In this document: positions 14,186 to 58,900 of the stretch, piece after piece
How positions within the stretch are numbered: the first letter of the stretch is position 1
Layout: each line of letters starts with the position of its first letter
DNA from: a virus
Lineage: Duplodnaviria > Caudoviricetes
IMG/VR virus record: IMGVR_UViG_3300035510_000283
Span: 2,544 to 66,543 of that record
Strand: one strand, 5' to 3'
DNA length: 64,000 nt
Made by a program: the position numbers and the translations under genes
The notes under the pieces: model-generated
The model's database searches: none
What the model was told of the DNA's origin: nothing
The model's input: only the letters and a program-made list of their open reading frames with translations

Positions 14186-14731
14186 ATGAAGAAAGTAAGT
14201 ATCGAAATTCCTAACAATAAGGAATTGGTTAAGGATGGCGACGTATATCGCTTGGTTGACAAAAGGACGGTCATGGAACGCATCAAGACGCTTGGCGATG
14301 CTGTGCATGAACTTGGTGAACAACACCCGTTGGTGGTAGAGTACAAGCAAGTCAAGAACATTGGCAGCATGAGTGCTGACGTGCTCGCTTATATGAAGCT
14401 GCGCATAATCGTTGCTGCGCTCAACGAAGGCTGGACTCCTAAATTCACCACCGACGAATATAGATACTATCCGTATTTCGTGCTATATACACAAGATGAG
14501 ATTGACCGCATGGATGAGGATGACAAATCACGCCTCGTCTTGTTCGGCGGCGTCTCGGCCGACGGCTCGTCTTGCGGTCGGGTCGCGACGTCCTCGGGTC
14601 ACGCTTGGACGGCCTCGTCCTCGGACTCTGGCTCGCGCCTTGCTTTCAAAACCCGCGACTTGGCTCTTTATGCCGGCAAGCAATTTAAAAAAATATATGC
14701 TGACTTTATGCTATTGAAAAAGGAGCAATGA
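14186..14731 (+). CDS. Remote DGR target protein (181 aa) carrying VR2
   Basis: Contains a 103-nt region matching TR at nearly all non-A positions, framed by LVLFGG...GSRLAF as in C-type-lectin-fold DGR targets. Confidence 0.85.
   Translation: MKKVSIEIPNNKELVKDGDVYRLVDKRTVMERIKTLGDAVHELGEQHPLVVEYKQVKNIGSMSADVLAYMKLRIIVAALNEGWTPKFTTDEYRYYPYFVLYTQDEIDRMDEDDKSRLVLFGGVSADGSSCGRVATSSGHAWTASSSDSGSRLAFKTRDLALYAGKQFKKIYADFMLLKKEQ
14537..14639 (+). repeat. DGR variable repeat VR2
   Basis: Hand alignment to TR over 103 nt gives 18 mismatches at TR adenines and 2 at non-A positions (CTC to CGG). Confidence 0.9.
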
Positions 14732-22109: not shown

Positions 22110-22526
22110 TTACACTCCCAATTTAGCGACGACTTTGCGGGCGATGTCTTTGGCTTTTTTGCGCCAAGATTGGAAAGCCACATACTCCGCGATATATTCG
22201 GCACGTTTGTCCTCGTCAATGTCAGCGTCGGTGTCCTTTGCCTCGTTGTAGTTCGCTGTGAGAGCTTGCGCATCGTCAGCATTGTAGCGGTCATTGACAA
22301 TCGCCGACACAATAGAGGCGTAGGTGTTCGCACCTTTCACGCGCACAAGCTCGCACGAATAGCGCAGTGTCGGCTCGGTCGCTTCTTCTGCGTCAGTGTC
22401 GGGGTTTTCGTCGCTGACTTCTTCGGTGTCAAAGTCAAAGTACACGTTAAGCGTGTCGGTAAAGCGAGACAGCATAATGCCGTCGTCGTCGGGGGAGTAA
22501 GCTCCTTTGTCAAAATACGTTTTCAT
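22110..22526 (-). CDS. Hypothetical protein downstream of the RT ORFs
   Basis: 138-aa ORF starting 20 nt after the RT part 3 stop. Confidence 0.7.
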   Translation of the reverse strand: MKTYFDKGAYSPDDDGIMLSRFTDTLNVYFDFDTEEVSDENPDTDAEEATEPTLRYSCELVRVKGANTYASIVSAIVNDRYNADDAQALTANYNEAKDTDADIDEDKRAEYIAEYVAFQSWRKKAKDIARKVVAKLGV

Positions 22527-22546: not shown

Positions 22547-23092
22547 TTATTCAAAGTAAAAATCATGCTTGCCGTTGCCAATATCCTGCTGACGAATGAT
22601 TGTCTCAATGGGGAAGATACCCGGTTGAGTTTTGGATAGCTTGCGAGCGTCGTCAAGTTGATTTTTCAACGAATAGGAATTAGTCACGAATTTGTAGCTA
22701 TTGTCGTTCAAACGAAAATGAACAACGTAGCGGCCATCGCCGTGAGCAGTTTTTATATTCGTCTCAAAATCAACTACAAATATAGTTAAATTTACAATTT
22801 CAAACAATCTTTTTACGGGAAAATCAAAGATTTTCTTTCCGTCTTTCGTCGTGGTGCGTTTCTTTATGCCGTATGTTGAAAATGACATATCTGTGATAGT
22901 AGTGAATAAGGTTGCACAGTTTGCCCACTTGCACCAGCCATAATAGCTGTCGTTGACTTCCTTCTTACGTTTTTCTGTCTTAGCTGATTTGTGCTTGCGG
23001 GCAAATGATTGTTTAATTCGCTTTCTTAGTTTAGTATATCTTGGCTGAAAGCAATAACCAAGAAAATCTATATGGTTAGCGCATTTTGGCAT
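22547..23092 (-). CDS. DGR reverse transcriptase part 3 (motif 7, thumb and a ~110-aa C-terminal extension)
   Basis: IDFLGY motif, then KLRKRIK..SYYGWCKWAN thumb-like region. Confidence 0.8.
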   Translation of the reverse strand: MPKCANHIDFLGYCFQPRYTKLRKRIKQSFARKHKSAKTEKRKKEVNDSYYGWCKWANCATLFTTITDMSFSTYGIKKRTTTKDGKKIFDFPVKRLFEIVNLTIFVVDFETNIKTAHGDGRYVVHFRLNDNSYKFVTNSYSLKNQLDDARKLSKTQPGIFPIETIIRQQDIGNGKHDFYFE

Positions 23093-23402
23093 GGCTGCGG
23101 CGGCGTTTGCGATGCGGTCGGTAGCGTTGAGCTGTGCTACCTATCGGAGCTAAAACAAGGCTATGTTTCACCGTGACACCGGCTCTCTCGCAGAGCATGA
23201 CAAATTCTGCGGCTTGACGGCGAGCCTCGGCTTTGCTCTTGGCTAGACCTACGCAGTCGTCGGCATAGCGAAAGTAGGGATGCACCGCTACGATGTGCTT
23301 CATTGCATGGTCAATACTCGCCACTGCATAGTTGCCGAAAAGCTGACTTGTGAAGCCGCCGATTGATAAACCGTGTCCGCTCTCGTTCATGTTCGATTTC
23401 AT
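23076..23402 (-). CDS. DGR reverse transcriptase part 2 (motifs 4-6, catalytic YADD)
   Basis: GLSIGGFTSQLFGN (DGR-type SQ motif) and YFRYADD at 23256-23267. Confidence 0.85.
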   Translation of the reverse strand: MKSNMNESGHGLSIGGFTSQLFGNYAVASIDHAMKHIVAVHPYFRYADDCVGLAKSKAEARRQAAEFVMLCERAGVTVKHSLVLAPIGSTAQRYRPHRKRRRSHAKMR

Positions 23403-24075
23403 CTAACGTTTGTTTGTCGGTGTGATAAAACAATGCCGTTTTCTCTATTAGCTCAATGAATTGTTCATCTTTGAACTTGTTGCGCAGTTGGTTGAGTATA
23501 AGCTCGTGAGGGATGCTCTGATAAAACTTCTTGCAGTCTGATTGCCACCGCCAAGTGTATTGCGGTTGCAGTCGCAATGTCTTTTTGAAACGCTGTGCGC
23601 CAAAGTGCAAACCTTTGCCTTTGATGCACGAAAATGTCATATAGATTAGTGACTTGCAGATTATCGGGGCGATTACTTGCACTACGGCGTGGTCGATGAT
23701 GTGCCACGGTGCAAACGGCTTTATTACTATTCTGCGCACTTTGCCCGCGTCTGATTTTCTATCATCTTCGATGTAGTCAACCTCGGGCAGATTGCCGGTA
23801 AGCAGCATGAGCTGTAATGCTCTAAGATTATTGGTTAAGTTATTTCCATATTTCTTTATTAATTTATTCTTTGACTTCTTTTTCTTGGCTTCGTGGAACG
23901 CTTCGCGCAGATTATCCATTGCGCAGATGCGCTCCATGATGTGGCCTTCACGTTTTGGTCGGCGGTTGCCGTTTGCTATAATATTCTTCTCGTAACTTAG
24001 GATGCGGCTAGCGAGCAAATTGTCTATCTGCTCGCCGCTCATGTCGCTGTAATCATAGGTGTCTAGGCGTTGCAT
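23311..24075 (-). CDS. DGR reverse transcriptase part 1 (motifs 1-3)
   Basis: NLREAFHEAKK, KVRRI..IIDHAVVQ..SCIKGKGLH and SDCKKFYQSIPH (first catalytic Asp). Confidence 0.85.
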   Translation of the reverse strand: MQRLDTYDYSDMSGEQIDNLLASRILSYEKNIIANGNRRPKREGHIMERICAMDNLREAFHEAKKKKSKNKLIKKYGNNLTNNLRALQLMLLTGNLPEVDYIEDDRKSDAGKVRRIVIKPFAPWHIIDHAVVQVIAPIICKSLIYMTFSCIKGKGLHFGAQRFKKTLRLQPQYTWRWQSDCKKFYQSIPHELILNQLRNKFKDEQFIELIEKTALFYHTDKQTLDEIEHERERTRFINRRLHKSAFRQLCSGEY

Positions 24076-24499: not shown

Positions 24500-24608
24500 G
24501 GCGCGAGCCATAGTTCGAGTTCGAGTTCGTCCAAGCGTTATTCGAGTTCGTCGCGACGAGACCGCAATTCGAGCCGTTGTTCGAGTTGCCGCCGAACAAG
24601 ACGAGGCT
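24500..24608 (-). ncRNA. DGR template repeat (TR)
   Basis: Rich in AAC/AAT codons (23 adenines in the 103-nt core); matches two VRs except at adenines; upstream of the RT. Confidence 0.93.
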
Positions 24609-24978: not shown

Positions 24979-26256
24979 TTAGGCTATATCCTTGCCATTA
25001 ACAAAGTTTAACGTGCCATAATATGCAAGGCGCGAGCCATAGTACGAGTTCGAGTACGGCCAAGCGCCAATCGAGAGCGTCGCGACGAGACCGCAACCCG
25101 AGCCGCGGGACGAGTAGCCGCCGAACAAGACGACATTGCCACCATCGGTATTAGCACTCCAGCAAGCGTCACACCACGGCGTGGATGCGCTGCCACCGCT
25201 AGCGGTCTTAGGTGCAACGTCAAAGTATTCGCCCAAATGCAGCTCTGTGATATAACTAGACGACCATGTAGTTGCGCGTGATAGGGCACGATAGTCACCC
25301 GTGGGGCCGTTAGTGCGTTCATCAGAACTAAGCAAGCGGTTGCCCGTGTAGATGTAAAAATAGCTGCCAATACCATAAATACCTTGCGCAAATTCCCACT
25401 GCAAGCCATAGGGGTCTTCGATGCCGCCCATTGACACGCGGCATGAATTGGTTGTTGCGTCGGTTATATCAATCTTGCCCCATGCGTCGCCGAGTTCTGC
25501 CGTTGCGCCATTATACCATTCGCTAGTGTTAATAGATATTCCGCTATTGCCCGTTACACCACGTCCAAGACATGACTGTATATCGGGGTTGCCATACTCG
25601 CTAAGTCCGAGCATGACGATTAGCTGTTGAAATGCGTAGTCGCGTAAGCCAAAATCTTTGCCGTTTACTCGAGCGTAATTCCAAAATTGCTCGAGTGTTT
25701 TAGAATGTGCGCGAAGGACACCGCTACGTGATGTCAATGCTCCGTCAGACGTAACCGAGGCTTTATATGCGCCATAGCAGTTGTGCAAGCCACCGTTGCA
25801 CGTGCCAATGTAATGACCGGATATTGGGAGTTGAGACATCCATAATATTGGTATTCCTGACTCGTTTTGCACCAAATAGTAAATTCGCGGCGCAATCCAC
25901 ATGATGTGCCCCTTGCTCTCGTCCAGCTCAGTGCCGTCGGCATACACCGTCGAATCCGTCTTTGACAACTTCGCAGCATCACCCGAGTTCGTCAACAAAT
26001 ATCGCCCCGAGTTCGATTTCCACTCCTCGTACATCAATGTATTGCCGATTACTCCCCACGATAACGTGTCGTAACCTTGCATCAACGGCACTCCCCACGC
26101 CACTTGCCGCAGGTAGTAACCATACTGATTTATCACTTTCGCGAGGTTGTCGAGGCTGATGCGCCGCAACGCCCCGTCTATCTCTATCAATACGCTGTTC
26201 GTCAACAACGCCGTACTAACACTCGTCAGCGTCGTTAGTTCTGTTGTATTTGCCAT
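24979..26256 (-). CDS. DGR target tail / receptor-binding protein (C-type lectin-like C-terminus)
   Basis: GGIEDPYGLQWEF and VVLFGG..GSRLAY flank VR1; last gene of the tail operon. Confidence 0.85.
   Translation of the reverse strand: MANTTELTTLTSVSTALLTNSVLIEIDGALRRISLDNLAKVINQYGYYLRQVAWGVPLMQGYDTLSWGVIGNTLMYEEWKSNSGRYLLTNSGDAAKLSKTDSTVYADGTELDESKGHIMWIAPRIYYLVQNESGIPILWMSQLPISGHYIGTCNGGLHNCYGAYKASVTSDGALTSRSGVLRAHSKTLEQFWNYARVNGKDFGLRDYAFQQLIVMLGLSEYGNPDIQSCLGRGVTGNSGISINTSEWYNGATAELGDAWGKIDITDATTNSCRVSMGGIEDPYGLQWEFAQGIYGIGSYFYIYTGNRLLSSDERTNGPTGDYRALSRATTWSSSYITELHLGEYFDVAPKTASGGSASTPWCDACWSANTDGGNVVLFGGYSSRGSGCGLVATLSIGAWPYSNSYYGSRLAYYGTLNFVNGKDIA
25029..25131 (-). repeat. DGR variable repeat VR1
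   Basis: Hand alignment to TR over 103 nt gives 15 mismatches, all at TR adenines. Confidence 0.95.
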
Positions 26257-40970: not shown

Positions 40971-43900
40971 CTATTGATTGTTGTTGCGTTTCTCCCACTC
41001 GCTGACGATTTTTATCAGCTCCTTTTGAGCCTCGCGAGCCTTCTGCTTATCTTTGTAGCTGTTAAGCATTCTTACTGCGGCGCTTTTGTAGTTGACAATA
41101 TCGGCGGCGTTGGCGGCTGCAAGTTCCGGAGTTGGAGCACTTGTCCATGATTTTATCATCTTGTCAAGCTTGCCGTGTAAGCCTTGGTAAAGCATGTAGC
41201 GTTGACCTTCGGGTGTGCGGAATAACTCTTGAGCCTTTGCTGCGCGGTTTATCATGTCGTTGCTGTCAATCTCGCGCAGACGTTGGCCGAATTGCTTATA
41301 CTCCTCTTCGTACTTGTCAAAGCTATCACTTATTGCACTGTCAGTGAGCTTGGAGATGCGCACCTTGGCTTCTTTGTTGAAGCGGGTGTTGAAGCGGTCA
41401 AGTTCCGATGCCCATTTATCCTTGCTCATTGCCAGGAGTGTCGTGAAGTTGGCGCGTCGTGCTTTGTAAATGGCGTAGCGCTCTGCCAGCTCCTCCGGTG
41501 ACTTACGTTGTGCCTCGCGTGCGTCCATGCCAAGCTCGTCAAAGTACACTTGGTCAATCTGAGACTGCGGGCATGATAGTATACGCATCCCAAGTATTGC
41601 AAGGTCTCTCATGCTCTTGTCGTCAGCGCCGAAATAGTCCAAGCCTGCCACAATCCAGTCCTCAAACACTTGCGGGTTAATACCTAGGGTGTATGCTGCA
41701 AGTGTCTGCACTCCGGTGTGTGCGGCTTCATAATACTTGCGGTTGACAATCGACGTTATCTCGTCTTCTAGCAGACTTGCTGCCGGAGACATGTCGGTGT
41801 CAAAATACGGACGTGTGCCTTGTATTGCACTGTATATAACATCGGGTATTGTGCCGCCTCCGGTGAAACCTTCAAGCGGGCCGAGAAAGCCTCGTTTCAA
41901 AGCATCTTCCGCTTGCTCCTTTTTCTTGTCTTTGTCCTTGCCGAATATCGCATACCACGCACCGGTAAGGCCGTATGACCAAAGTGCCGGCAGTATAAAG
42001 TCAAATGTGGCAGACTTCACAACATTGCGGCCAAGGTTGCGGTTGAACAGCCGGTTGGCTCGCCTTTCGGCTTGTTCTTCTGTCAAACCCATGCGCACAC
42101 CTTTCTTAATCTCATAAGCAATTTGCTCTTCCCTATTGGTTAGGCTGTTGTAAAGCTCGCGCTTGCTTTGTATTGATTGGCGAAGGTAGCTCATCGGGGA
42201 GTTGCGGAATGCAGTGAAACATGCTGTCATGTAGCTGCGGTCATTTTGCATCAGCGACAGATACGGCAGCTCGCTTGATTGTTGCGAGAGGTTGAATATC
42301 TGCTCTGCGTCCATAATGGCTTGCTTGTGCGCTTGCTCCGGGGTAAAGCCGTCTTTGATATATTCCTTATATTTGCAGGTATAGACAGCCTCAGAACCCA
42401 TTGACACTGTCAGTGCATCAATGAATGCGTTGGCCGACATGCCCCCACGTTGCAGTCGTTGCATGAACTCAGTGTTAGTCCATTTCCAATCGTGCTCTGT
42501 AGAACGCAATACCTCATTGCCCGCCTGTCTTGATTGCCAGCGGCGTTGGAATGACGGCATATTTTCCATTGCCCACTTCCAACACTCGCGTTGACGCTTT
42601 GGCGCTGTGTTATAGAGCAATCGTGCAACGTTAGCCTCGGCTAGAAATGCCGGGTATGAAAGCAGCTGTTTGAGCGCAGTGTTGAAGCGGAATGCAATAC
42701 ATGATGCCGTTACCAACTTTGTTGTGTTCACCAATGCCTTGTCAAATTCATTGACTTTAGGCTTGTATGCACCGCCAACCAACATTGAGAGGTTGTAGAA
42801 TTTCGCCCACAACTTCTTGCCGCTGCCGTATACAGTTGACATGTTCTTGATTTGGTTGCGGAAGCGTTTGTATGACAGCAATGTGCCAAGGTCGCGGCGA
42901 TACTCGGCAAATGCTGCCCAGTTCTCCATTTCGCGAACGTGGTCAAGTGCCACCGATATAGCATCCGAACCGGGTATGTCAAGCATGCTCGTGTTGAACT
43001 TGCGACGTATGATTGCACCGGTCATAATCTTTGGCAACTCGCGTCCTTCGGGGTCGAGACCTGCTTCTATCTGTGTTTGCTCTTGACGTGACTCTCCGAG
43101 TATCTTCAACGGGAAGTAGTTCTCTATCTCGTCCATCGGAGCACCAAACATGCGCATGTGTACCTCGTTGTACTTGTGTCGCAGTGCGGGTAGCAATTCT
43201 CCCTGTAGCCAATCTGCAGCTGCTTTAAGCCTCGGGTCTAATTTATCCTCAACGTTGATTATGTTTTCATCGGTGATGCCCATGGCACGGAGTTTTACAC
43301 GTCCGTCTTCCATTTTGTTGACCATGTACATATACATGAGGTTACCTTGCGTCACATTGTGGTTGCGCATTTCTCCGCCGTCCCACCAGCTGATGTGGCC
43401 GGCTTTCTTGTTGCTGAGGTCATAGAGGTCACTCCAGCGTGATTTGCGCTTGCCAAGTATCTGTGCGGCTTTGGCGTTGAGAATACCTTCGGTTTTTTGA
43501 GTCTCTGTCCACTCTTTGTCGCGGCACTCTTGCCAACCGTCAACGAAGCGTCTTTTCAGATACCCCTCCCCGTTAATGCTCTTTGAACCAAGCACTCTCA
43601 TCATCTGCTCGAATGTAGCTGTCGGTGCAAAGAAAATACGTGTCAAAATACCATTAGATAGCACTGTGCGCACTGACCTCTTCTGTCCGAACTCATTATA
43701 CGGTCTGCCGCTCATATCTGAGTTAGCGCAGTGGTGAATGTCGTTGATGCGCTGTTTCTCTCGCTGACGATACTCATTGAGGCGGTCTATTGACTCACTC
43801 ATCTCCGTGCCGATCAGCGAGGCAAGGTTGCGCAGCGCTTCTGCACGCTCAATCTTGGCCTTGCGAATTGACTCGTAGAGAGCTGCCTTCTGTTCAATGT

Positions 43901-46900
43901 AAGCTCGACGTGCTTCTCCGTTCATGTTCTTATCCCACTTGGCGGTAAGGTCGCCGATGGCGTTACGAATAGCGGTTTCATCGCTCTCGCGTGCACGCAC
44001 ATCGTTGCGATACTTCTGTGCAAGCACTAAGCCTCTGTGTTCGGCTGCTGCCATGATAGCAACATTGTCGTCATCACCGGCAAGGCGCTCCTCAAGTGTT
44101 GAGATACGCTCTGCGATTTCACCGTCTTCTTTGACGTTCATGTAGTCTTTGAACGCACGAACCATAACCTGACCTTGCGGGTCAAGTTTGCCGGCAACTG
44201 CAACACCCTTGGCATTGACCTTGTCGCCGCGCACTTTCAGCATTTTGTCAAAGAAGCGTTCTGACAAGCGCAACTGGTTGTCAACAAACAAGTCCATAAG
44301 CGAGTTAACGGCATCTGCAAAGTCTTTGTCGGTTTGTGCGTGGTGCTGCACTTTCTGTTTGTCGGTGTAGTTGTGACCTAAACCTTTTTGCAGTATTGCT
44401 GTCAGTCGTTTCACTTCCTCGCGTCCCTCGGGGCAAAAGTCTGCACTCTCCATGAGCACGTTGGCAACGTTGCGCAGTGACTTGACGGTGTTGTAGTCAA
44501 GTTCTTGCTGTGCTGTCATAGCCTTGCGGATGTCACTGAGGGTATTGCCGATTGCTTGAAGTGCTGCATCTTTAACGGCAATATCGTCTTTGTGTCGCTC
44601 TGAGAGCATGGTGGCAATCTTCAAGGTTTTCTCCTGCATGTCCATGCTGCGCATTTCCTCCTTGTCGCGCTCGTTCTGCTCGTCGGCATCGCGGAACTCC
44701 AACCCTTGCTCCGGGTCAAAGTCACGCCCGCTCTCGCGTGCCCAGTCATATTCAACAGGTGTCATATCAGGATGCTCACTGTTGAACTTGTCTATGACTT
44801 GACGTGCTTCGGCATCGCCGATTATACGGTTAGCCTTGAATGCTCCGGCAACATACCAACCCACACGGTCTGCCTGGCTCTTTCCCTTGTCAGCATTTGT
44901 GGCTTTGATGTAGTAACCATCTTCGGGAATGCGGTCGGGTAGGTCGCGGTCGGGATTGCGCTCTGCTTCGGCATTGTAGTCAACGTCAGCTGATACCTCG
45001 CCCTCAACCCACACAAAGCTGTTGTCGCGAAGGTTCTTTTCTTTACCCTTGCCGATTTGTCGCATTGTAGGCAGAGAGCCGGCATGCCAACCGGGGCGCA
45101 GTGAGAATGTTGATACGCTGCCCGAACCGTTGATGCCCAAGTTCCAATACTTGCGGTTTTCACCGTCAAAGCGGCGTTGTGCTTTTTCGGTCTGCTCTAT
45201 GACCATCCAACGCAGTCCGTTGTCTGAGGCATAGTTGATAGCGTCAACGTTTGGATATTTTGTTGACGTTGCCATGTCGGCATGTTCGGCGTTGAACTGC
45301 TCGCGTGTCATCACCTCTCCGGTTGACGGATTGACAAGGTATGTGCCCGGGGCTTTGTCTCGGAGCATTGACAAGTCGGGGCTGTCTGCATCGTACCATC
45401 TGCCTAATTCAGTGGGAACGGAGCTGTCAATAAACAGCGGATATAGCTTGCCGTCTTTGCCAAGACGCATGAGCTTGTAAACCTTGATTGTCCTTTTCGG
45501 CGCTTCTTTCTCACGCGGACGATACTCCGGCACTGAATTTTTTTCTTCGCTTGTTGCCTGAGTATCAGAATTATTTTGTACCTTTGTGCCATCAAAGTCT
45601 AATTCTTTATCGGTGTGTGCGCCTTCGGGCGTGTTAGTATCACTTTGTGCTCTGCGAGACGTACCGGAAGATTGGACTTTTTTGTTTGTATAGAAGTCAT
45701 TGAATTCTTCAACACCTTTCTTCCTTTCGGTCACAACGGTATATCTAACGCCATCTTTAACCAATGTATATTCATACAAGTTCGCTCCACGTCGTTCCTT
45801 TTCAACGCGTTCCCCGTTGGTTAGTACTTCGGGGATAAGTTTCAAGTCTTCTGCTCTAATAACTCCCACGCCTGTACCATAGTGACGGTAAATGCTGTGT
45901 TTTGTCCCAGCTCCACCTTCGCTGCCTTGTCGCATGATTACAGTGTGCTTGCCGTCTTCGCGCTCAACAGTTAGACGTGTATTGTCCTTGTCGCCGCTGA
46001 ATGCGTCAACAACGGCACGTTGATTGTCGTCAAGCTCTGCATCTTTCAATGTTTCTTTGATTTCACGCATACGCTTCGGCACACGGCTACCCATTTCAGA
46101 TACGCCGCCAAGCATACTTTCAAGCAAGATTTGGTCTTCGCGTGCAACATCCTCCGTCTCGCTTGCTAGACTACTGCGGCGCTCCTCATCGGACATGCTC
46201 ATACGCTTTTCAACGTTGCGGCTCTCAACCTCACCACCCAATCTGCGATACTGATCAAATGCGCTTGGTATGTTCTCCAAATCTGCCACAAGACCGTCAA
46301 TGTCACCATAGCCATACCGCTTGGCAAGTCGCTGCAATACGTCTGAATACGCGTCTCTTATCCTGTAATGTTCATATCCGGGCACTTTCATATTCATGCT
46401 CTTATCCAATGCGGCTGCTAGACTTCTGCTATCAGAAATCACAGTATCGTCTTCAAGCAAGTGTCCGTCAGTAAGGAAGTTTAATCTGCGTATAACGTCT
46501 GCTCGTTGGTCCTTAAATTCTCTGGCACTACCGCCACGCGCAAAACCTTCTTGTGCCTGAATTGCATGTTGCAATTCGTGAGCTAAAACATCTTCAGCTT
46601 TGTGGTTGAGTACAATGATATTTGCCTCTGGATCATAATATGCAAGACTTCCGCGCAAGTTATCTGTTCCAATCTTTACTTCCATGTTGCGTAATTCTGG
46701 ATAGGCTTCAAATAGCTCGTCATCGTCAACAAAGTCGTCTAAGTGTTTAGGCTGGTCAGACAATTCTGCTTCCTTTGTTTCTAGTTCGGCAATTCGATGA
46801 GCTTTTTCCGGGTCCATACCTCCGGCAATATATATATCTGCCATATCGGTATCCTCGGTAACCTCGCCGCCACTTTTTTCAAATATTTCACTACCTTTCC

Positions 46901-49900
46901 TGAATGCTTCGATTGATTCTTTAAATGAAGCTCTTAGCTCATCTCGTTCTTCTTTAGTTAATTCAAAACGTTCAGGGTGCAAGTTGCCGTTTCGGTCAAA
47001 CTTTTTAAAGTCGGGTGTCTCGTAGCGCCACTTGCCGTCTGCGCCACGTTCCCAACCTGTTGCAAGTTTGATAGCGCGAGCGTCCTTGCCGGTTTTCTCC
47101 ATGTCGCGAGCAACGCCAAGGTTGTCCATGCGAGTTGTTGCCTCCTCGCTCTTATCAAGCTGCTCAGCACCTCGCTCACCGATAAACCGATACTCTTGCG
47201 ATTGGTCGCGAGCCACAAGTGGCATACTGTCTGCGTTGCGCTCCCATTGCTGGCGGCGTACTTCATCGTTGGCACGGTCAAAGAAATCACCCTCAACGCT
47301 CTTGCCCTCTGCTTTGCGCACTTGGTGCTGATACAACTTCCACAGCATATAGCTGAGGTCATCATCAGTGAGCTTTATGCGTTTGGGTATCTTCATATCG
47401 GCGAAGATGCGATTAAGGAACTCCTCAACCTTTGTCTTCAACTTGTTCCAGACACTCTTTTGCTCTGTTTCAAGTTTATCATAACCTTTCTCGTGCACGG
47501 TCTCGGCAAGTCCTGCAATATACTCGCGTGTGGCTTTGCGATAGTCCCATGCGTTCTTGCGCATGAGCGATGCAATGCCGTTCTTGGTTTTTTCGCCGGC
47601 ATGTTCCCAAACCTCGTCAACGAACTTGTTGAAACGTTCCTCGCCCATGATTTGCTCAAGGTCTTTGTGACCTACAATTTCGTGCATGATGGTGCGCGCA
47701 ACGTCTTCAACATTGCGATGCGTGGCTATGTTAACATGTATCTCGCCTGTATTGGGGTTGTACCAACCTTTTGCACGACGCTTCTTGTACAGCTGCTCCA
47801 TATTGCTGTCATGTATGTCACCGGGGGCTTCATACACCACAACTTTCTCGCCAAGGCGTTTTGCAAACTCGTTGGCGGTTGCAACCATCTTCAAGTGCGT
47901 GACGCGGTCGGGCATGGTGTTTGCCACGTCCTCACCATCTGCCATGCGCTTGTAGTATAGCTTCATATAGTCAAGCTCGGCAAGTTCTTGGTCTATTGCT
48001 CGCTGACCTTTGGCGTCGTAATACTCGCGGTCTTCCAACAGCTCTTGACGGCGGCGGTCAATGATGTCCATGGCACTCTCGCCAATCTCTTTAGCTCGTG
48101 CCGATATGAGAGAGCCGTCCTCGTTGTAAATGCTGCCAACGCTTTTCTTGGTCTTGTTTATTTCGGCTGTTGCACCGCCATGGCCGTATGCGTTGTCGTA
48201 ATAGTAGTCTTCGCTGAGGTCACCTTTGGGGTTGCGAGTGTTGGTGTGCTCGGCTTTCCACTGCTGCTCCCATGCTTTCTCTTGCGATGCAAGGTCGCGG
48301 AGAGTGCTGCGCTCGTGCAAGCTGAGTGGATGTCCAAGCTCGTCACGCTTGAAGCGCAGACGGTCAAGTTGCTCGCTCCATGGCTGCACAAGTCGTGCGT
48401 TCTCGTACTCAACACCTTCTTCGGCTGTGCGGAAACGAATAGGTTGAGCTGCCTTGTCACGCTCTGCTTCCCATGCTTTTCTCTCCTCTGACGATTTATA
48501 TTCCTCCATCTTTTGGCGATATTCAGCACGTTCTTTCTCGTAAACAGCATCATCTTTTGCAGTGCCGTCCTCATTGTAAGCAGACGGTGGAATGGGGGCT
48601 TTCGGTTGCGACTTGAGCACGTCAAGATATTTCTTGGCATTGTTGTAAAGCTCCTCAATGCCTTTTTCATCAATTATGCGCAAGGGGTTATTCTTGCCGC
48701 CAAGTCCAAACACACTGTAGCCGTCTGCCCTGTCAATGTTGACAATGGCGTTGGGGTTAATCACGCAAAGCTCTTGCTCGGAATGGTCGGATGTTCTGTC
48801 ACCAATCCACACAGCATCAACACCGTCTTTCCATAAGTCGGTGATAATGTCGTCAAGCTCGGCTGCGTCCGACAAATCGGGTCGCTCTATTACCTTGGCG
48901 TTCTTTGCCAAAATAACCGGCATAATCCTTACATGTGATGATGTGCCGGAAAAGCGTGAGGCAATGCGTTTGCTGCTGCTTAGGCTTACTCCCCAATACT
49001 TCTGACCGTAACCGCCGCCACCTGTTCTCTCAACTTCGCGGTCGCTCATCAGTATGCTCGGCTTTAATGAGCCGCCACCATACGCTGTGCCATGATAGAA
49101 CATGTGTTCTGCTAGTTCTTTGGGACTGCTAAACTCTGAAATCAGTTTTGCTGCCCATGTTACACCCTTGCGGCTGCCAACCATGTCTTTCAGTCGGCGA
49201 ATGATTTTGTCCTTTGTCCATTCTCCTCTGATAGGGCTAATTGTTGCACGGGGGTTGTAACCGTTTTCATCGTCACCTGTGCGGAACTCCAAATTATTTT
49301 CGCTATTTGCTTGCTTATCAGCGGAATTAGTTGTACCTTTGTCGGCAGAAAGGTTTGGTTCGACAGCGCGTGAGCCATCTGGATTTTCAGTCTGACCAGC
49401 GGTTGCTAGGGTGGCAGAGCCTTTCTTTGACTTGGGTACGTTATTGTCGAAAGACGTAACTACCCAATTTTTATTTTCATCAATAATCTTGCCGGTTTCC
49501 TTATCACGTGTATTTTTACGAATTACAACACGCATACCATCTTTTTCGATTGTCATCTTATCCCAACGGTCTTTAATGACGTTACCATTGTTAATAACGT
49601 CTTCAATTACGTTCTGGGCTTCTTCAATGTTTGCAAAGTCTTTCCCACTACCAACATGCTTGTCAACAATGTGTTCAAGACCTCCGCTCTTATCGCCCCA
49701 CACAAGGTCAATATCACCAACCTCTTTTCGGTGGAATACACTTAATAAATCACCGGCTTTATTATTAGTTAAGAAAGCGAATGCCTCCTTGACCTTGCCT
49801 TTGAATTGGTCGTAGATGTCTCCAAATGCACCTTTGCCAATGGGCTTAACGTCACGTTGTTTGGCGGCGAGAGCGTCTGAGTAGATGCGCTTCTTGGCGA

Positions 49901-52900
49901 TAGCATCTGCCACCTCCGACAAAGTCCAGCTATACAGGCCGTCAGCGTAACCGCCTGTTCTGCCTAACAGCTGATTAATACCTTCGCTCTTTCGATACGT
50001 TGCTTCATTGTCTTGCAAATACTTGTCAACGCTATCCGGTGCGTCAGATAGCTTATCAAGTTCCTGCTGCAACTCAGCTTCGGTCATAGACTGCGCACGT
50101 TGCTCAAGCTCCTTGCCTTTGTCGCCGTCGATGAATGCGTTGTAGTAACCGTTTATTTTCTCGTTTACCATCTTGCCAACTGCGTCTTCAGCGTCAACAA
50201 CATCTTGCGGCTTGCCCCATTGTTCAACGTAATCATCGTATGCTTGCTCACGTTCAGCGTTGTTTCTGTTAATGCCACGATGCTCCTTTTCCAAGTCATA
50301 GCGTGCTTCTTGAGCATTTGTAGGCTCAGGCAACTCTGGAGCGGTATATACAGGGTTCTCGGCAAGAGACTTTTCATATTCAAGCGCTCTCACCTCGTGC
50401 GGTTTCAGCGTGCCGCTCTCAAGTTGTGAGTTTATGCGGTCAACGTTAATGTCGCGCTCTGTGGGGCGCATAACAATGCCGTCGCGCACAACATAACCTT
50501 GCTTGTGAACTTCCTCACCCATGCCGAGCGCAATAGCACGTGTATCTTTGCCTTTGACCATAATGGCGTGTGTGCCGTCTTTGTATTTAATCTGCATCTT
50601 GGCACCGTCACCGGCAGTGTCATACACATCAAGTATGGCTTTAGCCAGTGTCGTGTCCATGAGCGTTGTGCCACGGCCAGTGCCAACCTCAACCACAACA
50701 ACATGCTCTTTGCCCATGGCTTTCTTGGCCTCAAGCGCACGTGCAACGTTGCGTCTGAACTCTTCTGCGTCAAATTCTTCGGTTGCATGTTTATCAAACG
50801 CATTGAACACTCTTGTGTGGTCAGGGAACTTGCCGTCAATCTTCTCGCCTTTCTTTGTGCGGATGCTGCCCTCAAACTCGGCGGGGTAGTCGGCTTTCTT
50901 CTCAACAAGTATGCGAGTGTCGGTTGCAACGGCTCGGCCTTTGGTGTAGAATACACCTTGAGTTTGCTTGCGGTCTCCGTCTTTTTCTTTGCCAGTGTAG
51001 TTGAATAGGTTGAGCTTTGTTTCCTTCTTGGGCATAACCGGCTCTTTGGCTACGCGCTTAGCCTTTTCAATCAGCGTCTCGTTGTGGCGACGTGCAATCT
51101 CGTCCTGTAAGATTGGCAGATAAACATTAGCCTCCACTCGTTGACGTTCATATTGCTCTGTGTCAGCCTTGGTGGGGATGCTGTTCTCATCGTTATAAAT
51201 GTCACCGCTTTTGAAACCGAAATCTTCGTGCTCCTCGTTGCGGTGTGGTGCAAGTCGTTCAATTTCTGCCTCAATCCACTCTGTGGGGCGGTGGCTTACT
51301 TTCTCGCGGTAGTCTTTTGTTGTGTGAGCAAACTCCTTGCGAGTTTGATTGTAATAGCGCTTGCCGTAGTCGTAAGCATCGTCCATGCTGTCAAAGTCAG
51401 GCTGCTGTTTTGTTTCGGTCTCTGCCTTAGCCTCCGGCTGCACTTGTTCGCTCTCTGCGGCTGTGCTCTCTGCTTTTTCGGCATTGTCAAACAGCGACAA
51501 CTGCTCTCCTTTGTCCTCAGCTGCGTGTTGTTTCACGCTCGCATACTCGGCAAACGGCTTGGTCTTGCGGTGGCTGCTGTCAATCCACTTCTTGAACTCG
51601 GCTTTGCTGACGCGAGTAATTGCACCCAAACCTTGCCAACCTTCAGAATAATTTGACAAATAAGCTTGACGTGCGGCTTCTTCATTTTCAAAGCCGTACA
51701 TAACCTTGTGCTCGTCAAATTCACCGGTCTTCGGGTTTACTTGGTCAACAACATACACGTCACCATGTTCGGGGTTGTCTGATAAGAACACGTCAATGTG
51801 GTCACCATCAACGCCCTCAGTGCCGCGAATATACCCGTAGGTATTGTTCATGGTGCTCTCCCACTCGTTGCCGTCAGCATCTACGCCGCGGCGAGTGCTG
51901 CCCTTGGGGTTCTCAATGGTGATGTCGTGTCCGTCAACCTTGACGTGACCTTTCTTGTAGTTGCCGGCTTCCTTCTGTGCTTGTGTCGGTTCGGTGTTCA
52001 CCTCCGCTTCAGCTGCCTTCACTGCCGACTGAACAGACGGCGTTTCAGCTGCGCGGTTGTTCAGTGCTTCAATCATGGGTATAACAACATCACGGAGTTC
52101 ACGCTCGTGAGAGAGTGCTGCATTTGCTTGCTTAACCCATTCTTTGATGTCATAACCTTGCACGCCACGTTTATCGTCAGCTTCGCCAATACTCTTGAGG
52201 TACTCCCAAAAATCATTTTCATCTTTCACTTTCGACAAACGCTCATTGTTATCGTGGTCGCGTTCGTATTTTGCTAACTGCTTGTGTGCATCGTCAAGCT
52301 CGGCTGCACCTTTTTCGCCGGTAACGTCGTCAAGCCAATAAACAGTGTGACCTTGTTTATTGCCAATACGAATACCTTTGTTGCCGTTAGCGTCTTCGGT
52401 TTCCTCGAATACGGTTATGCCATTGCCCTTTTCGTTGAGAGCCTTGTCGCGTATCTCGGTTAACCGGTCATTGCCTAATACCTTGTCTGTCTCAGCAGTG
52501 GCAATTTCGTCGTTTATCTGTTCTTGCTCAGCGTTTTTCTGTGAACTTTTTTCGCTAACTCCTTGTTTTTCTTGTAACAAAGTATTACCTTTGCTGACAG
52601 AACTCGAACTTTTACTCTGACTTCCAGTGCGGCTCAATTGCTCGTCGCCTTGTTGAGCATTGATAGTGGGAACGGTTGGAGTTGCGACATCTTCAGGAAC
52701 GACGTGTGCGCCCCGTTCCCAGAGTAAAGGTCGTTCTTTTAATCCTTTTAAACTCTCATATCCTGATGTGCGGATGCCGATGAATTCACCGGTATCTCCG
52801 TTGACTACGATGGTAATTGCCCTACGTCCAACCTTATTTTTGCCGTTCTCTATGGAGAAAATATATGAATTGTCACGGCCTAATCTAACGTGGTCAACGT

Positions 52901-55900
52901 TGTTTATAATTGACAATACGAAATCTATTGCATCATCAAGATTGCTCATCTTGGTCTCCTTGGCGTGAGCATCGTACACGTGCCAAGCCATTGACTCTGT
53001 TAATTTGAAAGGCACCGGAGTAAGGCCAATACGCTCAAATATTTCGTCTGGTATTGAGGCTAATGAAGTTGAACCACTTTCATTTGCGTAAAAACGCTCT
53101 CCGTTTAAAGCACTTTCGGTTGAAATGGTGTATTTCTTGCCAAGGTTACTTTCTATTTTCTTGCGACGTTCGACTATTTTATTATTAGCCAGTTCTCCTT
53201 GGTCTCCGAAGGACGTGCCTGTTTGTGCAGCTTGGCTCTGGTTATTACCTCGGCTATCAGTCTGCGCGTATCCTGCGCCCTGAGAGTTTCTATCTCCTTG
53301 CGGCTGATTAGATTGTTGTTCAGACAATAAATCATCGCCTCCTTGTACTCCTTCGCTAACTGCTGTTGCTGTGTCGTTTGATTGTTGTCCATTTGATAGT
53401 TCTTCATTAATTTGGTCGTCAATAGCCTTGATGTCGGCATCTGACAACGATTTGTAAGTGTTATATGTTTCTTCTACATGGGCATCATAATCTTCCTTGC
53501 CCATATTATAACGTTGCATGTACCAGTCATGTTGCATCTCGCCGTAATTATTATCAAGTTCGCGAGCTGCTTGCACATCTTCGTCAAGCTCATCTTCGCG
53601 TGCACGATAAATTTCTGCGGCTGCATCAAACATGTCTTTAGATCGCGGAGTGCGACGCAATATTTCAATCACGGCATTGCGCACGTCAACATCATTAATG
53701 CGGTCTGCATTAAACTCAACATTGCCGGCATCACCTTGCAGCTCTTCATAGAGCATGTGTGTAAACTCATCAAAGTTCATGCCGTTGGCGTCAGACACTA
53801 TCCAGCCCATGTCAGCACGTTCGCCGGCTTTGTCTGAGCCAAACACTTGTGCTGCCATGCCTTTATCGCCTGACCACTTGGTCTTCATGTCCTTGCTGTT
53901 CGCTGCCAGTCGGCGCAACAACCATTCTTCCAGACTTGCGGGGGCATGCTCCCACTTATCCATAGCCTTACCAAACTGAGCCGGGCCTTTCAGCCTATCC
54001 TCAGTATCGCGGCGAGCCTTGACTGCTCTGCGGCTTTCACTGTTGAGGAGCGCATCTTTTTCTGCGTTAAAACTTTCGTCAAATGTAGTAAGCGCTTGCT
54101 CTTTCTCTTGGTTCTCCGGCTTTGCCGCTTCGGCGGCTTTAGCCTCTGCCTCTGCAATGGCTGCTTGGCGTGCTTGCTCTGCTGCTTGCGCCTGTGCTTG
54201 TCGTTCAGCTTCGCGTTGTGCTGCGTATGCCTTTTCGGCCTCGGCTTGCTCCAGTGCTTTGCGATGTATCTCTTCACGTCTGTTGGCCTCGGCTTGCTCC
54301 TTGCGCTCGGTGGGCACATTCATTATCGCTCTCCACTTTTGAGCAATAGCTTGAGCTGTTGCATATTCTTGCTCTGCGGCTTGTATTGCAGCATCAAATT
54401 GGTCGATGTCGTCAGTGTCCGGGTCTAGCTTGTCGAGAGTGCGTTTAGCATCGTTCATCTTCTTGCGTGCTGCTGCCTCTTGCTTTTCGATAAACAATTT
54501 AGCCTTGTCCTCGTTGCCTCGTAGCTTTTCTACAACTGCATCGTATGCGGTGGTAGGCTCAGCGTCAGTCCAAATAGCTTTGCCGTTTTCGTCTTTGGGT
54601 ACTTGCTCGTAGTAAGACGTTGAAGGTGCTGACTCAGCTAATGCACTTTCTTCGCTTGCTCTTGCACTTTCAGCATCAACAGCAGGAGCTTCTGCATCAG
54701 CTTGGGTGGGCGGCTGCTCTGTGGGCTGAGGTCTTGGATTTGCCGGCACATAATCAACGATGTTGCCTTTGTCATCGCGAGTGAACATTGTGTCAAGCGT
54801 CTCTGCCGGAATTGTTGTGTTGTAACCGGAGCGTGTGCTGCTCGGCTTACTGTTCTCGTTGATAGGAGAGGGTGTCCACACTGTCACATCGTTGCCCGAC
54901 ACATCAAGCACCGATGCAATTTGGTCATTGTCTTGACCATCAATCGGCAAGCGGAAAGTATCGCCAAACTCAAATGCGGTCTCGCTTGCAGCTTGGTTTG
55001 CACTTTCGCTTGCAGCTTGGTTTGCACTTTCGGTCGCTGGTTCGCTTGCAGCTTCTGTATTGGCTTCTGCTTGGCTTTCTGTCGGTGTCTCTGCTTGCGG
55101 CTCTGCACCTCGTTGTCGGCGTGCGAGTGCATCTTTGCATCCGGCAAGCCAACCCTTACCGGTGTCGGTCAGATTATCCTCTTCTTCCTCGTATGATTTA
55201 ATGATAGCAGCAAGCTCCTCATCGCTTCTGTTCTCAGCGTCAGCAATAGCGGTATTATACCAATTCTGATACTCTTCGCTTTGCTCTGACTTGTTGGTGT
55301 TGGTGTTGGTGTTGGTTGCTTCTTCATCAACGCGCACTGCGTCTTCATCAACGCGCACTGCGTCTTCATCAACGCGCACTGCGTCTTCTTCAACGTCCTC
55401 AGTCTCAGCTGCAGCGTTGATAATGGATGCAATTTGTTCCTGCTCAAGGCTTAGCTGCTGCTCTGCGCCTTCTTGCATTTCCCGCGGGTCAATCGGTTCA
55501 CTCATTTCCTTAATCTCAGAAGGAGAGATAACCTCAACCTCGTTGGTCTTGCCGTCAACCACAACAATAGTATTGTCTGAGGCATCAACGTCAACCGTGC
55601 CGTCCTCCGTGCGTTCTATCTTGCCGTCAATGACATATACGTCGCGGTCATTGAGAGTGAGTTTAGCCGGTTCAAGCATTCCGCTTTGAGGATTGGTGCG
55701 CTTCACAAATGCCTCTTGCATCTGCTTGCGTTTGTTCTCAATGCTTTCGTTGCTGGCGTCAACAAAGCCTTCCACACGCTGACGTGCGTTGATATAGTCA
55801 AGCACAGTCTGACGTTGTGCATCGTTTAGATCCGGATATGTGAGGTAACCAATCGGGTCTTCATCAATCTCACTGAGAGCACGCTCGCCAAGGTCGGCTT

Positions 55901-58900
55901 TCACACGTTCAATGCACTCGCGCATGTTGGCGGCGTTAGCTGCCATTTGCTCTGCTGCAGATGTGTCGCCTTGTTCGTATGCCTTGTGAGCCTCTGCGCC
56001 TTCGTTATATGAAGCCTCGGCTTGCTCGTTGGCTTTTTGCACTGTCTCGCGCTCCGGGTACAGCACATTCATATATTCATATAGAGCCTCTTTCTCAACG
56101 TCACTGCGCTCGCCCTCGTTCTTGGCAATAGTCTCATTGAGGTCTATGCCGTACTTTTTGGATATTTCATTGCGTTGGTTGGTGGCCTCGTCAGAGTATC
56201 GAGAGAGTATCTCATTGTACCTATCAAGTAGACGGCTCTTGCTGAGTTCAACGTCTAGGTTGCCCGCTTGAGCCATTTGGATGTCTTTTATGTCTCCGGA
56301 TAGTTTCTCTTCGTCAACATTAACCTCTTTGGCAAGGTCAGCAATGGCTTTCTTAGATGCATCATAAGCATTGCGTTGATTGAACTTCTGCTCGCCAACG
56401 TTGATTGAGTTAAGTTCAACCTGGTGCTTCACCTTGGCTTCCTCGGCTCTAGCTTCATCTTCTGTTGCAAACTCTCGTGAGGTTACAACTTCATTGTCGG
56501 CTGTGCGCGATTGCACAGTCCACTTTTTGCCATTGTCACTTGATGTAGTTGTACACTTGGCAATAGTGCCGGGGCTGAGCATGTGTCCGCCTGTTGCTAT
56601 GTAGTAGGCTTTTGCTCTTACGGCTTGACTTACCTCCGTGTCTTCCATTAGCTTTTGCATCTCAGCATAGCCGGTCAAACGTCCGTCTTTGACGTGCGCC
56701 GAAGCATCCTTGTCGAATTTGAACAACTCGCTGAGGTCGCTGTACCCATGCTCATCCAGCTCTGCGATGTCGTCTTTGCTGAGACGCACTTGCGGAACAG
56801 ACTGAGCATTGCGGCGTATCACTGTTGAGAGTGGCTCGCCGCGCTGCACAAGTTCCTTAACAACATGACCGGCTGACTTGATAGCGCCTTGAGTTTTTAA
56901 ACCCAACATAAATATAATGTTGTCGCCCCACACGTCACCGAAACTTGTTTTCTTCTTCTCGTCTGAGCTAAGAGTGAGGTAGTCTGCTGTTGCAAAGATT
57001 GTGCCGTCAAGCAAACCACTACCTGCTGCAGCTGCTGCTCGTGTTGCAACCTTGCCCGTGGTGCTGCCTATTCCGTCGACCACAGCGTCAGTGGCATTGC
57101 CCCACAGCGGAGCGAGTGCGCCTGTAACACCGCCAAGCACCACGCCGTGCATGGATTTTGACAGTGCATCGCCAACTGAATAGCTGCCAATGGTGCCGTC
57201 ATCTTTAAGCACACCGCCATGTGATATTTGCGTTTCGATGTTTTTAGCAGCATCGTATGCGCCGAGGTTGGCTGCACCGCCAACTGCACTCGCAAACATG
57301 CGAGAGCCGACTCTGCTCATAGCATATCTGGCTGCTGCGCTCTTCGTCGCTTCTTGCAGTGTGCGCTTGCCCATGAAGTTTATCATGCCTCTTGTTGCTG
57401 CACCTCCCAAACCACCGGTTGCCCACAGCATAGGGTCAGTGGCCATACTTGCTATGGATGCCGTTGTAGCCAACCAGCGATGCTTGCTGCCGTACTCAGA
57501 TAGCGCTTGCTCACGTGCAAGTTGGTCACCGCTGCTGCCTGACATGCCTCGTGCTGCAGCATCGAGCACCCAACCGTAGTTCTCCATCATCTTGGCGGCG
57601 AAGTACTCCAGCTTGTTTTTAGGCACGTTAGCCTTGACAGCACGATTGTACATATCCTTGTAGATTTCGCCTTTCATTGCTGTTACAGCTGCTGCATACG
57701 GTGACATGCCGTTGCACTCGTCGGGGTTCTCCTCAAAGTATTGCGTGTATTGAGCAATTGTATTGTCGCGATACTCTTGCGGCATGGCGTGATAGGCTTC
57801 ATTGGTAAGCCTATCCATGTCAAAGTTTTTGTTGTGTTCTGCGCTGCTTATAAGCGAGTTCACAAGGTCACCATGCGAGGTGGCGTATGTTTGCGTGGGG
57901 TTGGCGTCAGCCTTGACAGCCTTGTTCCATGCTTGGTCAATGGCTGCGTCAGCTTTAGCCTTCATTGCAGCATCGCCCTGGTGGAATGCTCTGTTCTCTG
58001 CTTCGGCGGCTTCGCGGCTGAATGTGCGCTCTCCTGACGCGGTCAGATACTCACGTTTCACTTGCCCTGATGCAGCATCGTATTTCAAGCCGGTGCTTAC
58101 GGCACGGTCTCTGCCGTGGCTCAGCTCTTGATACTGACGCATGTTCTCGGCACGGTCAGCGGCGGCGTTGAGCTGCTGCTGTGTCTGAATATTCTTCTTG
58201 AACGTTTTGCTGAGGTCTGCGGTTTGACTTGATGTTGGAGTATAGCGGTGGCCATTATCTTCACGTGACTCAACAGTCCAACCGTCTTTTATAAGGTTCA
58301 TCGCCTTTGATACGTTCACGTGGTACAACTTACCCTCGGTGTCACGCATGTAAACGCGAATGGGAGCACCTGCACCTTTCGTCTTTGCCCATGCTGCCAA
58401 GTCGCCATTGTGGTTTATCTCCGACTGCAGCACCTCAAAGTCCTTGCCACCACGACGCAAGCGCACAATGCGGTCGGGCTTACCTTCGCGCTTTGCTGCT
58501 TGTGCTTGCAGCTTTGTGGGCTGCTGAGTGTCACCTTGCGGGGGAAGTGTGTTCTTTTGCAGTGGCGTAGTCGGGCGCATTTCATTTGCGCTTTTTCCCG
58601 TTGGTGTAGTCGTATCTTGCTCCGTCACCATTTGAGACTTCATCATCGGCTTGGCCGATGTCGCCGGCTGTGCTGCCATTGTTTGCGCGGCTGCAGTTGT
58701 GGTAGGCTGCATTGACGGCTTGGGAGTGGCGTCAATAGTGAAAGGATGCCAACCTCTGCCAAGAGCCTCTTTCATTCGCCCAATGGGAATGTCGTAGTCA
58801 TTCTTGTCGTTGTCGCGCACGCGCACAGTTGCGTTGGGGTAGTCTTCTGCGTATCTACTCCAACCATATTTATCTATGTTCGACTTTGAAACGTTGTGCT

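Follow-up and report, generated by a model that had tools for sequence, protein, structure and literature searches.

A phage diversity-generating retroelement with a reverse transcriptase gene spread over three overlapping reading frames

To our knowledge, all characterised reverse transcriptases (RTs) of diversity-generating retroelements (DGRs) are single chains that need the accessory protein Avd. An RT laid out over three reading frames has been described in Quimbyvirus by Benler et al. 2021 (Microbiome 9:78, PMC8008677), who proposed two programmed frameshifts and reported two variable repeats (VRs) with adenine-specific variation. A later paper cites Benler et al. 2021 and the LoVEphage description jointly as the discovery of LoVEphage, and we found no paper in the later literature that addresses how the RT is expressed. 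Here we analyse the DGR in a stretch of 64,000 nucleotides (nt) of viral DNA, hereafter the window, which covers positions 2,544 to 66,543 of the 66.5-kb IMG/VR virus record IMGVR_UViG_3300035510_000283. Its RT gene has the same three-frame layout. The first-pass annotation of this DNA knew of no such layout in characterised DGR RTs; it is, however, of the published kind, which the window represents in a divergent form. Among annotated phages the nearest are LoVEphage (MW660583), BI-TP1 (PQ571265) and PV4-TP1 (PQ571302), which share 50% identity with the C-terminal piece of the RT and in which three coding sequences are annotated.

Layout and conservation of the reverse transcriptase gene

The RT gene is encoded on the minus strand by three overlapping open reading frames (ORFs) of 254, 108 and 181 amino acids (aa), which we call pieces A, B and C (Table 1). 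Both junctions are +1, as the offsets between the ORF starts show ((24075-23402) mod 3 = 1 and (23402-23092) mod 3 = 1). Pfam RVT_1 matches piece A with model positions 18-107 and piece B with model positions 122-186, the latter including YADD; piece C carries IDFLGY and gives only a weak match to GIIM, a maturase-type thumb. The DGR-type motif 4 ([I/L]GxxxSQ) is present in piece B as SIGGFTSQ. Piece A can be aligned with continuous relatives over 24075..23374 only, its final 20 codons being motif 4 read in the wrong frame. The first ATG of piece A (24075) has a poor start score of -2.15 on the window's own start matrix. The 40-residue N-terminal extension of piece A is conserved in the related loci L032, L033 and L066, and the RTs of L002, L016 and L040 begin ~40 residues later (L-numbers denote related loci throughout).

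The first-pass annotation had described three overlapping ORFs with two +1 frame changes, and had placed the aspartate of SDCKK and the YADD motif on separate ORFs. The ORF list, the frame offsets and the Pfam matches bear this out. The internal ATGs that it had singled out are all present in the sequence: 23402, directly after a TAG at 23405-23403, and 23390 and 23092, each formed by CAT-G. It was also correct that the junction windows are free of long homopolymers, the longest in either being 4 nt, and that both breaks fall in loops with extra residues: in the alignment these loops are ~14-17 residues longer than in the continuous Hankyphage-type RTs.

The three-frame layout is real and has been inherited across a large clade of Bacteroidales phages. 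At least eight independent assemblies from JGI and Logan contain piece C and the 254-aa and 108-aa ORFs without any change. A profile search with the C-terminal part of the RT identified 45 viral loci and eight loci in Bacteroides and Phocaeicola genomes, among them B. acidifaciens DSM 15896, B. oleiciplenus YIT 12058 and B. intestinalis AF14-32. Among relatives at 40-52% identity the RT is without exception in frames n, n+1 and n+2, with the breaks at the same two places. The same layout is found in 14 divergent lineages (~45-50% amino-acid identity), in LoVEphage, in the induced phages BI-TP1 and PV4-TP1, and in Bacteroides isolates. Its recurrence among independent assemblies and divergent relatives puts the pattern well outside what chance would give. 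Conservation of the breakpoints among relatives, which the first-pass annotation had proposed as a check, was thus looked for and found. The relatives came to light at the protein level only: megablast and blastn searches of the RT region against the INPHARED phages gave no nucleotide match, and a locus search with piece A alone gave no confirmed relative.

Single-nucleotide differences between strains (L059, which is 98.6% identical to the window, and two others) are mostly synonymous in the frame of each piece: 13 synonymous and seven non-synonymous in A, one and none in B, and five and none in C. This pattern indicates that purifying selection acts in each of the three frames. In the LoVEphage population (19 distinct sequences with 147 variable sites) selection switches frame at the mapped places; too few of these sites lie within the overlaps to separate models of expression.

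The template repeat (TR) and the two VRs provide signs of activity. All 15 internal mismatches between TR and VR1 are at TR adenines, confirming the adenine-only differences noted by the first-pass annotation, and 18 of the 20 differences between TR and VR2 are at adenines. L059 shares the TR of the window exactly, and VR1 differs between the two at TR-adenine positions. With identical TRs and a VR1 diverged at adenines, mutagenic homing must have taken place after the two strains split, when the three-frame gene was already in place. In all lineages tested, TR/VR mismatches are at TR adenines, either exclusively or at 17-18 of 18-20 positions. Recent adenine-specific VR mutagenesis thus co-occurs with the three-frame RT gene, and by its repeats the element is a working DGR.

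These data bear on the trivial explanation that the breaks are sequencing or assembly errors, or that the gene is a recently broken pseudogene. One contig could be cited in its favour: in L004 (IMGVR_UViG_2065487001_000014, 1270-1420), a LoVEphage-type contig from the 454 era, pieces B and C are in frame at junction 2 by virtue of an A8 run, compared with A6 elsewhere. The run is upstream of the crossing and would swap a conserved lysine/arginine-rich (K/R-rich) peptide for wrong-frame residues, for which reason we consider the in-frame junction of L004 to be probably a homopolymer error. Against an artefact or a pseudogene stand the identity of the independent assemblies, the conservation of both breakpoints at ~45% identity, in isolates and in induced phages, the predominance of synonymous change in each frame, and the divergence of VR1 at adenines between strains sharing a TR. 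We therefore rejected this explanation and give it next to no credence. Indel errors, unconserved breakpoints and a lack of VR diversity, which the first-pass annotation had named as findings that would speak against it, were not what we observed: the assemblies agree and VR1 differs between strains.

The two junctions and the making of the enzyme

Our preferred, but tentative, reading is that the RT is a three-subunit enzyme, with a palm split between polypeptides such that the motif-3 aspartate is on one and YADD on another, made from internal ATG starts in the overlapping frames. Pieces B and C would each have a conserved ATG of their own as start codon (B at 23402 or 23390, C at 23092), and the three polypeptides would fold into one RT: A would contribute the fingers and motif 3, B motifs 4-6 with YADD, and C motif 7, the thumb and the C-terminal domain. 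The breaks would then fall in two surface loops. We know of no RT that is split within the palm.

The ATGs speak for this reading. In nine lineages we scored both junctions for a +1-frame ATG that is located within 25 codons upstream and not followed by an intervening stop. Such an ATG is present upstream of 16 of the 18 lineage-junctions, compared with a background of 4-38% per lineage. At junction 1 the frame-B ATG is kept in seven of nine lineages; at junction 2 the frame-C ATG is kept in all nine, and also in further lineages that we inspected. Each junction ATG is made by a NAT-G pair in which the synonymous T is always kept, yet the phage prefers C-ending codons for Asp, Asn and His (~65:35). 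On a start-context matrix built from 39 of the window's genes, the junction ATGs rank high among internal ATGs, at the 88th-94th percentile for junction 1 and the 96th for 23092 at junction 2. Two further observations are in line with own starts: just before motif 4, frame B retains an ancestral RRG, which a continuous relative (P0030, see below) reads in frame, and in L045-L047 the C-terminal domain is in turn an overlapping +1 ORF of its own. The A-richness upstream of the internal ATGs is variable and not decisive. Bacteroidetes make little use of Shine-Dalgarno pairing.

The principal rival explanation is that two programmed +1 frameshifts join the frames into one chain of ~508 residues, reading …ERERT-GLSIGG… at junction 1 and, over CGC-TAA-C, …HAKMR-NHIDFLGY… at junction 2. 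At junction 1 the ribosome would stall on a rare CGG codon and then read the overlapping GGT. This is a real possibility, which we rank second. The +1 codon GGT (23372..23370) encodes the glycine that opens motif 4, and the crossing that fits best in the window, judged by comparison with related loci of the same sub-clade, is ACA-CGG-T (23376..23370); in those loci it is ATT-AGG-T (L066) and ATA-CGG-C (L072). Up to the crossing, frame A is conserved as L(E/D)xE…(R/K)K, an acidic/basic stretch; from the crossing on, frame B is conserved, beginning with G(V/I/L)(P/S)IGxxxSQ, and synonymous change between strains and lineages switches from A to B at this point. It also speaks for frameshifting that both junctions are +1.

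Several observations weigh against three separately started chains, and some of them are readily understood in terms of frameshifting. The 0-frame codon over the motif-4 glycine is AGG or CGG in all 14 lineages, with a synonymous swap between the sisters L066 and L072, and ten of the 14 lineages have at least two (A/C)GG codons within four codons; dual coding accounts for this only partly. AGG and CGG are the rarest Arg codons in this phage (3-4% of Arg; CGG is used 1.8 times per 1000 codons, or for 3% of Arg); in the 508-codon RT path of the window they occur at codons 176, 233 and 235 only. L066, L033 and L037 have a TTG but no frame-B ATG at junction 1, and their VRs are still mutated at adenines only. 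Piece A has wrong-frame tails of 7 to 83 residues in different lineages, with no conserved stop nearby. The junction ATGs that score well among internal ATGs are at the 18th-29th percentile of true starts, and the ATG statistic overstates independence because the nine lineages are related. RTs with one break or none are found inside the clade of three-frame RTs, as detailed below. We also know of no natural three-chain RT.

The double frameshift has difficulties of its own. The codon before the crossing, which would occupy the ribosomal P site, is AAG, GAG, CAG, GCG, AGA, ATT, ATA or ACA depending on the lineage; there is therefore no conserved slippery site, and +1 re-pairing would be poor in most lineages. 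The crossings at junction 2 are mixed: the 0-frame codon is CGG, AGG, TGG or GGG, or else a stop. RNA structure downstream of the two crossings, scored in 12 lineages, revealed no consistent stimulator, the z-scores being mostly between -1 and +1. A tRNA scan of the window was empty, hence there is no phage-encoded Arg tRNA to tune a shift at hungry codons. Two inefficient shifts in series would yield very little enzyme, and the strong conservation of the downstream-frame ATGs would be left unexplained. We know of no bacterial or phage gene that sets a precedent for two +1 shifts. The first-pass annotation had proposed either a three-chain enzyme or double recoding; both survive our analysis.

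Junction 2 differs in character from one sub-clade to another. In the window, frame B ends in CGC-TAA, with the TAA stop in the 0 frame, and the +1 codon AAC (23077..23075) leads into NHIDFLGY. L066 and L072 likewise have the frame-B stop exactly at the crossing, and share with the window an ATGCCA 11-17 nt upstream. Most lineages instead have NGG-AAG at the crossing, with frame C taking over at GRx(I/L)D(F/Y)LGY; the GGR-AGR purine string found here is fixed beyond what is needed to encode Gly-Arg, consistent with it being read in both frames, which counts in favour of own starts. Just upstream, piece B ends with the K/R-rich insert: most lineages have (K/R)RKRQRG here, the window HRKRRRSHAK. 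Between lineages the Arg codons of the insert differ synonymously in frame B, and the insert is therefore translated.

For the three-subunit enzyme, the frame-C ATG in the window, which precedes the end of the frame-B stop by 17 nt, would be placed in the way usual for coupled re-initiation. The same feature could serve a mixed route, in which a +1 shift at the rare-Arg cluster carries the ribosome over junction 1 and junction 2 is passed by termination and re-initiation, giving two chains, A-B and C. The two junctions do look different in this respect: junction 1 has the rare-codon cluster and has lost its ATG in some lineages, whereas junction 2 has kept its ATG in all lineages examined, and ATGCCA followed by a stop, as in the window, L066 and L072, is typical of coupled genes. 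The RT protein P0020, in which junction 1 is shifted and junction 2 is in frame, shows that the junctions evolve independently. However, in LoVEphage-type lineages 50-95 nt separate the frame-C ATG from the frame-B stop, a long distance for re-initiation. We consider this route unlikely.

The frame changes might also be avoided altogether if the loop sequences were removed or skipped, by translational bypassing, a mini-intron, RNA editing or transcriptional slippage. Both frame changes do occur at clade-specific inserts. Yet the insert peptides are conserved in the upstream frame (KRKRQRG with synonymous AGA/CGY switches at junction 2, L(E/D)xE…RKK at junction 1), there are no matched take-off and landing codons, and homopolymers do not exceed 4 nt. 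Conservation of the inserts as peptides makes bypassing, splicing and slippage improbable; given also the lack of homopolymers, we rejected this group of explanations, which we regard as very unlikely.

Continuous relatives and the C-terminal domain

A word-based search for longer relatives of piece B found none, and an exhaustive phmmer search was needed. The nearest relatives in this search are mostly stand-alone pieces of 105-150 aa, but it also returned three longer RT proteins. In P0020 (L068), B and C are in one frame and junction 1 is still shifted, at AAG-AGG-A. P0030 (477 aa, from eight contigs; L069-L071) and P0026 are fully continuous RTs. In a maximum-likelihood tree all three sit within a clade of three-frame RTs that has 100/100 support, and P0030 is the sister of the three-frame L002 (support 88/81, 58% identity). 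The window groups with L066 and L072 (99/99), in the same RT clade as LoVEphage but in a separate sub-clade. By this analysis, continuous, one-break and two-break forms of the RT coexist in one clade. Because in-clade relatives have only junction 1 broken, or neither, each break arose, or was lost, independently of the other.

The conceptual A-B-C fusion aligns end to end with P0030 and P0026; this, and the position of P0030 as sister to a three-frame RT, are further points in favour of a frameshifted single chain. P0030 and P0020 lack the K/R-rich insert at junction 2, and P0030 has a longer N/S-rich loop at junction 1. The first-pass annotation had considered that close homologues with a continuous RT and no conserved breakpoints would argue against a genuine split. 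Continuous homologues do exist in the same clade, but the breakpoints are conserved elsewhere; since the close continuous relatives P0030 and P0026 lie inside the clade, a continuous relative is no refutation by itself.

P0030 passes the RVT_1 cut-off with 57.5 bits. Its AlphaFold model has a pLDDT of 88.7, and the best structural match is the Bordetella DGR RT (8UB7_A), with a TM-score of 0.88 over the length of the Bordetella enzyme (bRT) and 25% identity. In the model, junction 1 maps to a position after a helix that is followed by a long loop, and junction 2 to an inter-strand loop.

The C-terminal domain of piece C is conserved and beta-rich. In L045-L047 it is an ORF of its own, overlapping in the +1 frame and starting with ATG-AAA (L045:2857-3171; L046:3197-3508). 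Foldseek gave no match to this domain at E <= 0.001. The best VIA-align match has a Z-score of 5.5, and the matches are mostly OB-fold proteins that bind single-stranded DNA (SSB-like), although the scores are too weak to name the fold. The domain might take the place of Avd, the accessory protein usual in DGRs. PF05635 (Avd) has no match in the whole 66.5-kb record, where a divergent or replaced accessory protein is possible, and there is no ORF of suitable size for Avd between the target gene and the RT.

Table 1. Features of the DGR in the window (all positions are window coordinates).
Feature	Position	Strand	Description	Basis
RT piece A	23311..24075	-	N-terminal extension, fingers, motifs 1-3, catalytic Asp in SDCKK	ORF list, Pfam RVT_1, alignment
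RT piece B	23076..23402	-	+1 to A; motif 4 (GLSIGGFTSQ), motif 5 (YADD), motif 6, K/R-rich tail	ORF list, Pfam, alignment, phmmer
RT piece C	22547..23092	-	+1 to B; motif 7 (IDFLGY), thumb, C-terminal beta-rich domain	ORF list, Pfam, alignment
Two frame-B ATGs (23402, 23390)	23388..23402	-	Candidate start codons for piece B, a short way upstream of junction 1	
Junction 1 crossing	23370..23382	-	GAG-CGG-ACA-CGG-T; two rare CGG codons in frame A	
K/R-rich insert, RYRPHRKRRRSHAKMR	23079..23126	-	End of piece B, read in frame B; absent from continuous relatives	
Junction 2	23075..23092	-	Frame-C ATG-CCA (23092), 17 nt before end of frame-B stop (23078..23076)	
C-terminal domain	22550..22888	-	~113 aa, fused to RT; separate overlapping ORF in L045-L047	
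Template repeat (TR)	24500..24607	-		
VR1	25029..25136	-	3' end of 425-aa target gene (24979..26256)	
VR2	14532..14639	+	3' end of ORF 14186..14731	

The cassette and its counterparts

Neither DGR target protein has a match in Pfam. For a LoVEphage-type homologue of the target, the depositors' annotation gives an Mtd_N-like structural match. The second target, a protein of 181 aa, is encoded ~10 kb away from the cassette; in Quimbyvirus the remote target is located in a defence-related island. Directly downstream of the RT, at 22110-22526 on the minus strand, is a gene for an acidic protein of 138 aa with no Pfam match. The relatives seen all have this gene in the same position, Hankyphage-type loci (126-138 aa) among them, and it may be part of the DGR cassette. 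Elsewhere in the window, the 18-kb ORF that the first-pass annotation had described as unbroken is indeed intact (40971..58946, minus strand; 5991 aa, ~27% of the genome).

DGR RTs are under development as tools for targeted mutagenesis. A conserved RT that is either put together from three pieces or doubly recoded, with an extra C-terminal domain and no detectable Avd, would offer another route to making or restraining such an enzyme; a three-subunit RT would be conserved in one of the most prevalent groups of temperate phages of the human gut and in its relatives. How the enzyme is expressed can be tested directly, because LoVEphage-type phages are inducible from cultured Bacteroides.

Known sites of +1 frameshifting at slow codons include CUU-UGA-C in prfB, CUU-AGG-C in Ty1 and GCG-AGU-U in Ty3 of yeast, and tandem AGG-AGG in E. 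coli. The junctions of the RT gene resemble these in that a readable +1 codon overlaps a 0-frame codon that is either a rare Arg codon or a stop. They differ in that the known sites keep a specific P-site codon, with an additional Shine-Dalgarno-like stimulator upstream in prfB, whereas the P-site codon here is not conserved. The multisubunit RNA polymerases of jumbo phages, with split beta and beta-prime subunits, assemble a catalytic core from several polypeptides. Their pieces are encoded by separate, non-overlapping genes, unlike the overlapping ORFs of the RT.

Among DGR enzymes, bRT of Bordetella phage BPP-1 (PDB 8UB7) has in common with the RT of the window a motif 4 ending in SQ and the adenine-specific transfer from TR to VR. 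However, bRT consists of one 328-aa chain and functions together with Avd, whereas the window encodes an RT with an extra C-terminal domain and no detected gene of the Avd family. Hankyphage (Bacteroides phage p00, BK010646) and L003 and L041-L043 belong to the same RT family and have a C-terminal domain of ~110 aa, with ~40-43% identity to piece C. In contrast to the window, the Hankyphage-type RT is one ORF of ~430 aa and lacks both inserts, the acidic/basic one at junction 1 and the K/R-rich one at junction 2.

The closest likeness is to Quimbyvirus and LoVEphage. Like the window, they have two VRs (one adjacent to the tail genes, the other remote), no annotated Avd, and the gene order target, TR, RT, small acidic protein, lysis genes. 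As regards the candidate family 'Quimbyviridae', the comparison covered the synteny of this DGR-lysis region. What the window adds to them is modest: a divergent sub-clade with a different junction 2, a map of both crossings, and three forms of the gene within one clade. Its RT has 46-50% amino-acid identity to theirs and falls with L066 and L072 in a sub-clade of its own, in which junction 2 has, in place of the GGA-AGR string, the frame-B stop at the crossing and an ATG-CCA 11-17 nt upstream.

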